A DNA stretch of 64,000 nt, from assembly GCF_017348835.2 (NCBI RefSeq), contig NZ_CP071375.1, one strand, 5' to 3'. The position numbers were made by a program, and so were the translations under genes. Below are positions 23,843 through 27,877 of this stretch, in pieces. The stretch is from Escherichia coli. GTDB taxonomy: Bacteria > Pseudomonadota > Gammaproteobacteria > Enterobacterales > Enterobacteriaceae. The notes beneath the pieces are model-generated. The model was not told where the DNA came from, searched no databases, and saw only the letters and a list, made by a program, of their open reading frames with translations. Every line of letters starts with the position of its first letter. Within the stretch, counting starts at the first letter, position 1.

Positions 23843-24301
23843 ATGTTAGATAAAATTGACCGTAAGCTGCTGGCCTTACTGCAGCAGGATTGCACCCTCT
23901 CTTTGCAGGCACTGGCTGAAGCCGTTAATCTGACAACCACCCCTTGCTGGAAGCGCCTGAAACGGCTGGAGGACGACGGTATCCTTATCGGCAAAGTCGC
24001 CCTGCTGGATCCGGAAAAAATAGGCCTCGGCCTGACCGCCTTTGTGCTGATAAAAACGCAACATCACAGCAGCGAATGGTATTGCCGCTTTGTCACGGTG
24101 GTTACCGAAATGCCAGAAGTGCTGGGGTTCTGGCGCATGGCTGGTGAATACGATTATCTGATGCGCGTCCAGGTTGCCGACATGAAACGCTACGACGAGT
24201 TTTATAAGCGTCTGGTAAACAGCGTGCCGGGGCTGTCGGACGTCACTTCCAGCTTCGCGATGGAACAGATTAAATACACCACTTCTTTACCCATCGAATA
24301 A
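23843..24301 (+). CDS. decR: Lrp/AsnC-family transcriptional regulator DecR (YbaO), 152 aa
   Basis: ORF-track 23735..24301; start at [16 protein letters not shown]; N-terminal HTH typical of AsnC family. Confidence 0.9.
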
Positions 24302-24330
24302 ATATCCAGAATCAGGTCAGGACACAACGC

Positions 24331-26103
24331 GTGCGATTATTTGCTCAATTAAGCTGGTATTTCCGTCGGGAATGGCGTCGCTATCTCGGGGCTGTCGCCT
24401 TGCTTGTCATTATCGCGATGCTGCAACTGGTTCCGCCGAAAGTGGTTGGTATTGTTGTCGATGGCGTGACAGAACAACACTTTACTACCGGGCAGATCCT
24501 GATGTGGATCGCCACCATGGTGCTGATTGCCGTTGTGGTTTATCTCCTGCGTTACGTCTGGCGGGTATTGCTGTTTGGTGCGTCTTATCAACTGGCTGTT
24601 GAACTACGTGAAGATTATTACCGTCAGCTAAGCCGGCAGCATCCTGAGTTTTACCTGCGTCATCGCACGGGGGACCTCATGGCTCGTGCGACCAATGACG
24701 TCGATCGCGTCGTGTTTGCCGCCGGAGAAGGGGTGCTGACGCTGGTGGATTCACTGGTAATGGGCTGCGCTGTGTTGATTATGATGTCTACGCAAATTAG
24801 CTGGCAGTTGACCTTATTTGCCCTGTTACCGATGCCAGTGATGGCGATCATGATTAAGCGCAACGGCGATGCCTTGCATGAACGCTTTAAGCTGGCGCAG
24901 GCGGCGTTTTCCAGTCTTAATGACCGTACCCAGGAAAGCCTCACCAGTATCCGCATGATCAAAGCCTTTGGTCTGGAAGATCGCCAGTCGGCATTATTTG
25001 CCGAGGATGCCGAAGATACCGGCAAGAAAAACATGCGTGTGGCACGTATTGATGCCCGTTTTGATCCGACGATTTACATCGCCATCGGCACTGCAAATTT
25101 GCTGGCTATTGGCGGTGGAAGCTGGATGGTAGTGCAGGGCAGTTTAACGCTGGGCCAGCTCACCAGTTTTATGATGTATTTAGGTCTGATGATTTGGCCG
25201 ATGCTGGCTCTGGCATGGATGTTTAACATTGTGGAACGTGGTAGTGCTGCGTACAGCCGTATTCGCGCGATGCTGGCTGAAGCGCCGGTGGTGAACGATG
25301 GTAGCGAACCCGTGCCGGAAGGGCGTGGCGAACTGAATGTAAATATTCACCAGTTCACGTATCCGCAGACTGACCATCCTGCGCTGGAAAACGTCAATTT
25401 CGCCCTGAAACCCGGTCAGATGCTGGGTATTTGCGGGCCGACCGGTTCCGGCAAAAGTACCCTGTTGTCGCTCATTCAGCGTCATTTCGACGTCAGCGAG
25501 GGGGATATTCGCTTTCATGATATTCCTCTGACGCAGTTGCAACTCGATAGCTGGCGTAGCCGCCTGGCGGTGGTCAGCCAGACGCCATTCCTTTTTTCCG
25601 ACACCGTGGCGAACAACATCGCGCTGGGTTGCCCGAATGCCACCCAGCAAGAGATTGAGCATGTCGCGCGGTTAGCCAGCGTACATGACGATATTTTGCG
25701 TCTACCGCAAGGTTACGATACAGAGGTGGGCGAGCGCGGCGTGATGCTTTCCGGCGGACAAAAACAGCGTATCTCCATTGCTCGTGCGTTATTAGTCAAC
25801 GCGGAAATCCTCATCCTTGATGATGCGCTTTCGGCGGTGGACGGACGCACAGAGCACCAGATCCTGCATAACCTACGTCAGTGGGGGCAGGGAAGAACGG
25901 TAATCATCAGTGCCCATCGCCTTTCGGCACTGACGGAAGCCAGTGAAATTATTGTGATGCAGCACGGGCATATCGCCCAGCGTGGCAATCATGATGTGCT
26001 GGCACAACAAAGCGGCTGGTATCGCGATATGTATCGCTATCAACAACTGGAGGCGGCGCTCGACGACGCTCCGGAAAATCGCGAGGAGGCCGTCGATGCG
26101 TAG
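24331..26103 (+). CDS. mdlA: ABC transporter fused permease/ATPase MdlA, 590 aa (GTG start)
   Basis: ORF-track full length; Walker [10 protein letters not shown], signature LSGGQKQR, Walker B ILILDD. Confidence 0.94.
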
Positions 26104-27877
26104 TTTTAGCCAACTGTGGCCGACTCTCAAGCGCCTGTTAGCGTACGGTTCACCGTGGCGTAAACCGCTGGGGATTGCGGTCCTGATGATGTGGGTTGCG
26201 GCGGCGGCAGAAGTCAGTGGGCCGCTGCTTATCAGCTATTTTATCGACAATATGGTAGCGAAAAATAACCTGCCGTTGAAAGTGGTTGCAGGGCTGGCTG
26301 CGGCGTATGTTGGGCTACAACTGTTTGCCGCCGGGCTACATTACGCGCAGTCGCTGCTGTTTAATCGGGCGGCAGTAGGCGTAGTGCAACAGTTGCGTAC
26401 CGACGTGATGGATGCTGCGTTACGCCAGCCATTAAGCGAGTTTGATACCCAACCCGTCGGGCAGGTGATTTCCCGCGTCACTAATGACACTGAAGTGATC
26501 CGCGATCTCTACGTTACCGTAGTGGCAACTGTCCTGCGCAGTGCCGCACTGGTGGGCGCGATGCTGGTGGCGATGTTCAGCCTCGACTGGCGAATGGCGC
26601 TGGTGGCGATAATGATTTTCCCGGTGGTGCTGGTGGTAATGGTGATATACCAGCGTTACAGCACGCCGATTGTCCGTCGTGTGCGCGCCTATCTGGCGGA
26701 TATCAACGACGGCTTTAACGAAATCATCAATGGCATGAGCGTTATCCAGCAGTTCCGTCAGCAGGCGCGATTTGGCGAACGCATGGGTGAGGCCAGTCGT
26801 TCACACTATATGGCGAGGATGCAAACCCTGCGCCTCGACGGTTTTCTGCTGCGTCCGCTGCTGAGTCTGTTTTCATCGCTCATTCTTTGTGGCTTGTTGA
26901 TGCTGTTTGGCTTCTCCGCCAGCGGCACCATTGAAGTGGGCGTGTTGTATGCGTTTATCAGCTATCTTGGGCGACTTAACGAACCCTTAATCGAACTGAC
27001 CACGCAGCAGGCGATGCTGCAACAGGCTGTTGTTGCTGGTGAGCGCGTGTTTGAGCTGATGGACGGACCGCGCCAGCAATATGGCAATGATGATCGCCCG
27101 TTACAGTGTGGCACCATCGAAGTCGATAACGTGTCATTTGCTTATCGCGATAACAATCTGGTGCTAAAGAACATTAATCTCTCTGTGCCTTCGCGCAATT
27201 TTGTGGCGCTGGTTGGGCATACCGGCAGTGGCAAAAGCACCCTCGCCAGTTTATTGATGGGCTATTACCCGCTAACGGAAGGTGAGATTCGCCTTGATGG
27301 TCGTCCATTAAGTTCGCTAAGTCACAGCGCGCTGCGCCAGGGCGTGGCAATGGTGCAGCAAGATCCGGTGGTGCTGGCGGATACCTTCCTCGCCAACGTG
27401 ACGCTGGGGCGTGATATCTCCGAAGAACGCGTCTGGCAGGCGCTGGAAACCGTGCAACTGGCGGAGCTGGCACGCAGTATGAGCGACGGGATTTATACGC
27501 CGCTGGGCGAGCAGGGAAATAATCTTTCAGTCGGGCAAAAGCAACTGCTGGCACTGGCGCGCGTGCTGGTAGAGACGCCGCAAATCCTGATCCTTGATGA
27601 GGCAACCGCCAGCATTGACTCCGGTACTGAACAGGCGATTCAACATGCTCTGGCGGCGGTGCGTGAACATACCACGCTGGTAGTGATTGCTCACCGCTTA
27701 TCGACTATTGTTGATGCCGACACCATTCTGGTGCTTCATCGTGGGCAAGCCGTGGAGCAGGGCACTCACCAGCAACTGCTGGCGGCCCAGGGACGCTACT
27801 GGCAGATGTATCAACTGCAACTTGCGGGTGAAGAGCTGGCTGCCAGCGTGCGTGAAGATGAATCCCTGAGCGCCTGA
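26096..27877 (+). CDS. mdlB: ABC transporter fused permease/ATPase MdlB, 593 aa
   Basis: ORF-track 25982..27877; start at [14 protein letters not shown] overlapping mdlA stop by 8 nt; Walker [10 protein letters not shown]. Confidence 0.93.

Follow-up and report, generated by a model that had tools for sequence, protein, structure and literature searches.

Organisation and candidate control sites of the decR-mdlA-mdlB locus of Escherichia coli, a probable transcription unit for a cysteine-responsive regulator and a predicted heterodimeric exporter

Are the regulator gene decR (also named cyuR or ybaO) and the ATP-binding cassette (ABC) exporter genes mdlA and mdlB of Escherichia coli transcribed together, and does the cysteine response of the regulator extend to the exporter? 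I analyzed this locus in a stretch of 64,000 nucleotides (nt) of E. coli chromosomal DNA, from contig NZ_CP071375.1 (assembly GCF_017348835.2), which is called the window here. In an earlier, sequence-only reading, it was claimed that decR ends 29 nt before the GTG start codon of mdlA and that mdlA and mdlB overlap by 8 nt, and both distances turned out to be exact. The decR-mdlA spacer reads ATATCCAGAATCAGGTCAGGACACAACGC, while the stretch common to mdlA and mdlB (26096-26103) reads ATGCGTAG. The same gene boundaries are found in the RefSeq annotations of strain PE164, whose locus is identical, and of K-12. Since the NCBIfam profiles align from residue 1 (MdlA residues 1-589 on profile positions 1-589 of 590, and MdlB residues 1-583 on profile positions 1-583 of 584), the start codons of mdlA and mdlB are supported. 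In summary, it is likely that decR, mdlA, and mdlB are one transcription unit, with the control and the heterodimeric exporter proposed below. The operon and its control by DecR have already been published for E. coli, and the gene arrangement is ordinary. Confirming it adds little; what remains of value is a candidate DecR box at the transcription start site (TSS), the putative heterodimer, and the idea of a cysteine module.

The three genes lie on the same strand, with no terminator or promoter detected between them. A promoter and terminator scan of 23400-28500 found no terminator-like or promoter-like site in the decR-mdlA spacer, and a consensus scan found no sigma-70-like site on the plus strand between 23811 and 28500. 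Folding of 24262-24370 gave no structure beyond those of shuffled sequences (z = +1.1), and an Rfam scan of the whole window returned no RNA family in 23600-28100. Thus, neither the internal promoter for which a search of 24302-24330 had been suggested nor a terminator, which would have spoken against a common transcript, was found in the spacer. One candidate was considered and rejected: a vestigial -10 element TATCCA (24303-24308), suggested by the TGnTATCCT elements that other families carry, has no -35 element at a workable distance and no reported TSS.

Transcript data are available for K-12. In the SMRT-Cappable-seq study, decR and mdlA are entered as one operon, 'b0447|b0448', whose TSS is at 468356 on the forward strand (Yan et al. 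2018, Supplementary Data 2, PMC6131387). This TSS corresponds to position 23816 of the window, as the ATG of decR lies at 468383 in K-12 and at 23843 in the window. The operon was flagged as novel with respect to the RegulonDB units 'b0447; b0448|b0449', and the neighbouring rows of the table are b0446 and b0452, with no separate unit at mdlA, mdlB, or glnK (PMC6131387). In the K-12 Term-seq supplement, the ybaO-mdlA interval is free of RNA 3' ends, and a single weak one is given inside mdlA (+1527; K-12 470398, window ~25858). No obvious terminator was seen at the latter position in the window. Rodionova et al. described a cyuR(decR)-mdlAB operon that is repressed by CyuR, relieved by cysteine, and activated by SoxS (Commun Biol 2024, PMC11408624). 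According to that study, there is no predicted TSS in the spacer, the expression of cyuR and that of mdlA correlate with r = 0.71-0.77 over 1035 samples, and mdlA is up in a cyuR deletion mutant and under paraquat, where the rise is absent without soxS or soxR (PMC11408624). Thus, the spacer scans, the long-read decR-mdlA transcript, and the published co-expression bear out the three-gene unit of the sequence-only reading, with mdlB joined by the 8-nt overlap. The operon probably ends at the terminator-like hairpin following mdlB (Table 1), for which no experimentally mapped 3' end turned up in the data consulted.

How might this unit be controlled? Three Pfam domains, PF13404 (E = 1e-16), PF13412, and PF01037 (E = 2e-21), cover residues 2-142 of the 152 residues of DecR. 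They make up the Lrp/AsnC architecture, with an N-terminal AsnC-type helix-turn-helix and a C-terminal AsnC_trans_reg (RAM) ligand-binding domain; the cysteine-dependent DNA binding and the activation of cyuPA by DecR are known from the literature. The predicted sigma-70 promoter, whose -10 element ends 6 nt before the mapped TSS, would start transcription at 23816, just past the intrinsic terminator of cof. This terminator, at which K-12 Term-seq places an RNA 3' end 114 nt upstream of ybaO, shields the decR promoter from transcription arriving from upstream. Upstream of the -35 hexamer, as in promoters of the MarA/SoxS/Rob regulon, lies a marbox, the only match to GCACAAAATGACAAA in the 64 kb at up to one mismatch. 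A MarA chromatin immunoprecipitation sequencing (ChIP-seq) study lists the identical ybaO marbox with strong binding in vitro (PMC5684230), and a SoxS ChIP site was found at the Salmonella ybaO promoter; both ybaO and mdlAB of Salmonella are induced under oxidative stress. Binding of MarA, SoxS, or Rob to the marbox would activate the promoter under oxidative or drug stress. A 23-bp CyuR motif was defined, and its binding was reported from fluorescence polarization (Rodionova et al. 2024, PMC11408624). The window has a sole match to this motif, with one mismatch to the consensus GAAwAAATTGTxGxxATTTsyCC.

CyuR was proposed to be an autorepressor relieved by cysteine, which modulates CyuR binding in vitro (PMC11408624). 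DecR would lower the activity of its own promoter via the 23-bp site over the -35 hexamer or, more probably, via a palindrome at +1 to +15, or via both. Binding of cysteine to DecR is reported to relieve the repression, and the same protein activates cyuPA. RNA polymerase would then pass the 29-nt spacer without meeting a terminator. MdlA would be translated from its own Shine-Dalgarno (SD) sequence and GTG start, and translation of MdlB may be coupled to that of MdlA through the 8-nt overlap, an arrangement that would favour equal amounts of the two subunits. Finally, MdlA and MdlB would join to form an ABC exporter, an asymmetric heterodimer in which one ATP site is degenerate and the other is catalytic. 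The coordinates of all these features, and of RNA elements found elsewhere in the window, are collected in Table 1.

Table 1. Positions of the genes, of the observed and candidate control sites of the decR-mdlA-mdlB locus, and of other RNA features in the window
Feature	Coordinates	Strand	Description and basis
cof intrinsic terminator	23706..23732	+	7-bp GC-rich stem ACCGGGC/GCCCGGT, then T9; terminator scan, -13.9 kcal/mol
marbox (MarA/SoxS/Rob site) GCACAAAATGACAAA	23740..23754	-	exact match to the published ybaO site
published CyuR 23-bp motif GAATAAATTGTCGTGATTTCACC	23775..23797	+	overlaps the -35 hexamer
sigma-70 promoter (predicted)	23782..23810	+	-35 TTGTCG (23782-23787), 17-nt spacer, -10 TAAAAT (23805-23810); 9/12 consensus matches
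perfect palindrome GAGAAAAAAATTCTC (GAGAA-N5-TTCTC)	23816..23830	+	starts at the mapped TSS; candidate DecR operator
decR (cyuR, ybaO)	23843..24301	+	ATG 23843, TAA 24299-24301, 152 amino acids (open reading frame list and sequence); Lrp/AsnC-family cysteine-responsive regulator; Pfam, K-12 identity, RefSeq
decR-mdlA spacer	24302..24330	+	29 nt; SD AGGA 24319-24322, 8 nt before GTG
mdlA	24331..26103	+	GTG 24331, TAG 26101-26103, 590 amino acids; ABC half-transporter (transmembrane domain, then nucleotide-binding domain); NCBIfam SmdA, Pfam ABC_membrane and ABC_tran
mdlA/mdlB junction	26083..26103	+	SD GAGGAGG 26083-26089 inside mdlA; putative translational coupling
mdlB	26096..27877	+	ATG 26096, TGA 27875-27877, 593 amino acids; ABC half-transporter; NCBIfam SmdB
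terminator-like hairpin and T-rich tail	27912..27949	+	after mdlB, upstream of the glnK promoter; hairpin 27912-27939; scan, 11 pairs; -18.2 kcal/mol
sraA	14170-14265	-	Rfam
signal recognition particle (4.5S) RNA	31916-32012	+	Rfam
dnaX frameshift element	48816-48880	+	Rfam
naRNA4	56803-56881	+	Rfam
sroB	62561-62644	+	Rfam

Is this arrangement common in Enterobacterales? A scan with one genome per species yielded 80 DecR loci from the Enterobacteriaceae, Erwiniaceae, Yersiniaceae, Pectobacteriaceae, Hafniaceae, Budviciaceae, and Morganellaceae; counts out of 81 include strain PE164 (L001) in addition. In 79 of the 80 species, mdlA follows decR on the same strand. The GTG start of mdlA is conserved in 78/79 loci, an SD-like GGA upstream of it is kept in most species loci, and the 8-nt mdlA/mdlB overlap is present in 62 of 77 species. 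The decR-mdlA spacer varies from 6 to 242 nt (median 53, 79 loci), and terminator-like sites were seen in only two of these 79 spacers. In Edwardsiella hoshinae (L070 6001-8383), decR is directly followed by glnK (76% identity) and amtB (68%), and both mdlAB and cdsH are missing from the locus. In this species, the regulator occurs naturally in the absence of the exporter.

A divergent L-cysteine desulfhydrase gene, cdsH (ccdA), was found upstream of decR in 73 of the 80 species loci (74/81 with the PE164-inclusive set). It starts about 115 nt from decR, as in L003 (4836-5885, minus strand), and its product scores 568 bits on NCBIfam Cds1, just below the cut-off of 600. Since cdsH is divergent to decR in most species loci, the ancestral cluster was cdsH<>decR-mdlAB. 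The Escherichia loci lack cdsH, and cof and its terminator adjoin the decR promoter instead (window 23690-23740). Both the adjacency of cdsH and its absence in E. coli were noted earlier by Nonaka and Takumi (PMC5423876).

MdlA and MdlB each have the half-transporter architecture (ABC_membrane followed by ABC_tran in Pfam) and are encoded by an adjacent overlapping pair of genes. MdlA matches the NCBIfam SmdA equivalog NF008055 over its full length with 1264.5 bits (cut-off 845), and MdlB matches the SmdB equivalog NF008056, likewise over its full length, with 1181.9 bits (cut-off 746). The two ATP-site sequences are complementary to each other: in MdlA, the Walker B motif, ILILDD, is degenerate, with Asp at the position of the catalytic Glu, and the signature, LSGGQ, is canonical, while MdlB has a consensus Walker B motif, ILILDE, and a non-canonical signature, LSVGQ. 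The Walker B motif of MdlA ends with DD in 79/79 loci; that of MdlB ends with DE in 77/77 loci, with the signature LS[VAT]GQ in all 77. This Walker B/signature asymmetry is what characterizes heterodimeric ABC exporters with one degenerate site at the sequence level. Because of the complementary asymmetry of the ATP sites and the conserved overlap of the genes, I infer that MdlA and MdlB form an obligate asymmetric heterodimer with one degenerate ATP site. The asymmetry is not discussed in the operon literature that was found, and a PDB sequence search returned no structure or transport-assay entry for MdlAB.

The candidate operator of DecR emerged when the 135 nt that precede decR were aligned for 31 genera. 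Conservation is best not in the 23-bp motif but in the palindrome GAGAA-N5-TTCTC, whose only exact occurrence in the 64 kb is the one at the mapped TSS. The palindrome is exact in 53/81 loci, has at most one mismatch in 68/81, and is located at -27 from the ATG of decR in 67 loci. The K-12 cyuP promoter region has the similar palindromes GAGAATGAATATTCTC, GTAGAAAATTCTTAT, and GTGAAGATTTTCTCT (L083 6128-6219, minus strand), the last of which adjoins the -10 element TATCAT, and the cyuP upstream regions of eight other genera align on the K-12 palindrome boxes. A weight matrix built from the decR sites alone gave 8.4 to 22.1 bits on the cyuP upstream regions of seven of the nine genera; for 429 control windows, the 99th percentile was 5.3 and the maximum was 10.3. 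The published 23-bp CyuR motif was not found upstream of cyuP at up to three mismatches. Thus, the palindrome at 23816-23830 is probably a DecR operator distinct from the 23-bp motif. As a candidate, it is sharper than the published motif and would help to define the DecR regulon. DecR bound at +1 to +15 of its own promoter would repress, while DecR bound upstream of and next to the -35 element of cyuP would activate. The palindrome at the TSS is not discussed in the operon literature that was found, although it may be described in Shimada et al. 2016 or Loddeke et al. 2017.

What does the exporter have to do with cysteine? MdlAB belongs to the few ABC exporters of E. coli that still lack a physiological substrate, and the conserved linkage of its genes to those of a cysteine sensor and of a cysteine desulfhydrase leads to a concrete hypothesis. 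The sequence-only reading had suggested a functional link to the cysteine detoxification role of DecR. This link stands at the level of regulation, where DecR is reported to repress and cysteine to relieve, and in the conserved cdsH<>decR-mdlAB order, but it does not reach transport: the link is regulatory and positional. In the literature found, there is no test of the cysteine sensitivity of an mdlAB mutant, and no cysteine-related or sulfur-containing substrate is named. The idea itself is not new but is the thesis of the 2024 paper (PMC11408624). At its fullest, the hypothesis would be that MdlAB is the export arm of an ancient Enterobacterales cysteine module, cdsH<>decR-mdlAB, in which DecR acts directly via the GAGAA-N5-TTCTC box shared with the cyuPA promoter, that the substrate is cysteine-derived or sulfur-containing rather than antibiotics, and that the exporter works only as an asymmetric heterodimer. 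As a whole, this proposal is speculative and improbable.

The strongest rival to the cysteine link, with a chance approaching even, accepts co-transcription of the genes but denies the exporter any specific part in cysteine metabolism. MdlAB would then be an exporter for stress, drugs, or housekeeping in general, and the SoxS/MarA-inducible promoter would serve it and decR alike. The phenotypes reported are unrelated to cysteine, namely the cefazolin and vancomycin sensitivity of an mdlA deletion mutant and the drug resistance from the Serratia homologue SmdAB as it is cited in the same paper (PMC11408624). Anthocyanin export has also been reported for MdlAB, and a cysteine phenotype is absent from the literature found. 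Edwardsiella hoshinae has retained decR and lost mdlAB. Four Buchnera strains have kept mdlAB, and in Buchnera BCc no other ABC system is left; the reduced Buchnera genomes lack most regulators. What holds this rival back is the conservation of cdsH<>decR-mdlAB in at least seven Enterobacterales families, together with the reported repression of the operon by DecR and its relief by cysteine, and the candidate DecR operator on the very TSS of the operon.

The palindrome itself can be read in another way. As it starts exactly at the mapped TSS, it might, rather than being a protein operator, act in the RNA as a 5'-terminal stem-loop (+1 to +17), by which the decR-mdlAB mRNA is stabilized or regulated. 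The RNA folds into a 6-bp stem of -5.1 kcal/mol, and in 85% of cells its arms are Watson-Crick paired; compensatory changes of GC to TA and GC to AT occur. G-U pairs (16) outnumber A-C mismatches (8), but this excess is small, and pair counts alone do not tell whether the motif is an RNA hairpin or a DNA operator. The arm sequences are conserved beyond what pairing alone would demand, and the symmetry continues through the A/T centre. Moreover, the motif occurs one to two times upstream of cyuP at positions expected to lie upstream of the -10 element and thus to be untranscribed. Because of this untranscribed position of the cyuP copies, recognition of the palindrome as DNA is favoured, and the stem-loop reading appears rather unlikely.

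The weakest rival is that mdlAB is transcribed mainly from its own promoter in the 3' end of decR or in the spacer, with the spacing reflecting mere genome compaction and decR being a separate unit; the older RegulonDB units, the conserved elements in the long spacers of other families (see below), and a cyuR/mdlA correlation that is high yet imperfect would suit it, but it is very unlikely, as a full promoter does not fit in the 29-nt gap, the plus strand has no sigma-70-like site between 23811 and 28500 and the spacer no predicted TSS, the long-read list has no TSS-defined unit starting between decR and b0452, and mdlA and mdlB follow the SoxS-dependent induction while the sole mapped binding site lies upstream of decR.

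Several points nevertheless weigh against a single, DecR-controlled transcription unit with an obligate heterodimer as its product. The SMRT-Cappable-seq table is restricted to genes that are covered completely and so shows no individual read that extends across mdlB, and RegulonDB, as quoted in the row of this operon, kept ybaO and mdlA-mdlB separate (PMC6131387). In lineages with long spacers (80-242 nt; L041, L045, L046, L048, L050, L051, L055, L057, L058, L061-L064, L067, L069, L073, L077, and L078), a conserved TGnTAT(T/C)CT is present in Yersiniaceae, Hafniaceae, and Budviciaceae, and TATAAT is present in Pectobacteriaceae. These lineages may hold an mdlAB-specific promoter or other regulatory sites, for which the E. 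coli spacer is too short. The rise of mdlA in the cyuR deletion mutant could be a polar or cassette effect instead of lost repression. The fluorescence polarization assay used micromolar protein, some of it solubilized in and purified with 7 M urea, and the published probe (C. braakii AAAATTGTTGCCATTTAGCCTTTAAAAT) does not contain the palindrome; because of these conditions and this probe, neither candidate operator is firmly established. As for the heterodimer, a phenotype was seen in the mdlA deletion and none in the mdlB deletion, and it was suggested that MdlA may act alone (PMC11408624). This suggestion conflicts with an obligate heterodimer, but the phenotype on which it rests failed complementation (PMC11408624).

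The arrangement is not an accident of this one strain. A 4.5-kb segment (23600-28100) is 100% identical to those of two pig isolates and 95-99% identical to those of essentially all other complete E. coli genomes, being present in 5423/5426. DecR is identical to the K-12 b0447 product in 152/152 residues, and the neighbours are the same; one nucleotide of the 456 compared differs, synonymously. Upstream of decR, the intergenic region with the promoter equals that of K-12 save one extra T in the T-run of the cof terminator. MdlA and MdlB differ from their K-12 counterparts by five and three residues, respectively. At the nucleotide level, mdlA has 52 differences from K-12 in 1770 and mdlB has 31 in 1779, so the divergence is uneven in comparison with decR. 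Because the divergence is low in decR and higher in mdlA and mdlB, these counts suggest a recombination boundary near the decR/mdlA junction in the source lineage.

Two other Escherichia loci deserve mention. In SCPM-O-B-8794 (L002 5845-6000), which is labelled E. coli and probably represents a separate Escherichia lineage, the decR promoter region has clearly diverged by several changes, and the 23-bp motif reads GAATAAATTGTCGCTATTTGGCC. In comparison with E. coli, decR (~4380-4822) of the type strain of Escherichia albertii (NBRC 107761, L040) lacks 13 bp (alignment columns 534-546). Since this deletion shifts the frame, this decR may be a pseudogene, or the deletion may be an error of the draft assembly. 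Outside the decR-mdlA-mdlB genes, a TGGCAC-N5-TTGCA sequence, the sigma-54 promoter consensus, was found at 27990-28005 upstream of glnK-amtB; this is the known NtrC-dependent glnK promoter.

How does the locus compare with known systems? The cyuR(decR/ybaO)-mdlAB locus of K-12 is the same locus, with the marbox, the 23-bp motif, the 29-nt spacer, and the 8-nt overlap all present (PMC11408624, PMC6131387). The cdsH/ccdA-decR/ccdR module of Salmonella and Pantoea ananatis, as summarized in PMC5423876, has an orthologous regulator at the same position beside mdlAB. Unlike this module, E. coli has lost cdsH, and the catabolic target of DecR is the unlinked cyuPA operon. Serratia marcescens SmdAB is the system to which E. 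coli MdlA and MdlB show equivalog-level matches, and the Serratia loci have the same order, decR-smdA-smdB. However, the Serratia spacers are 80-213 nt in length with a conserved -10-like element, unlike the 29 nt of E. coli, and, as far as tetracycline is concerned, E. coli mdlA did not reproduce the drug-efflux phenotype reported for SmdAB (PMC11408624).

Among proteins in the PDB, Bacillus subtilis BmrCD (YheI/YheH) provides the reciprocal best relatives, with E = 1e-148 for MdlA and BmrC (YheI) and E = 2e-118 for MdlB and BmrD (YheH). As in MdlAB, the catalytic Glu is missing from one subunit of BmrCD, and the other subunit has a deviant signature motif; this relation is a homology of family and architecture only. 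TM287/288 is another heterodimeric ABC exporter with one degenerate ATP site, and BmrCD is controlled by a leader-peptide attenuator rather than by a co-transcribed regulator.

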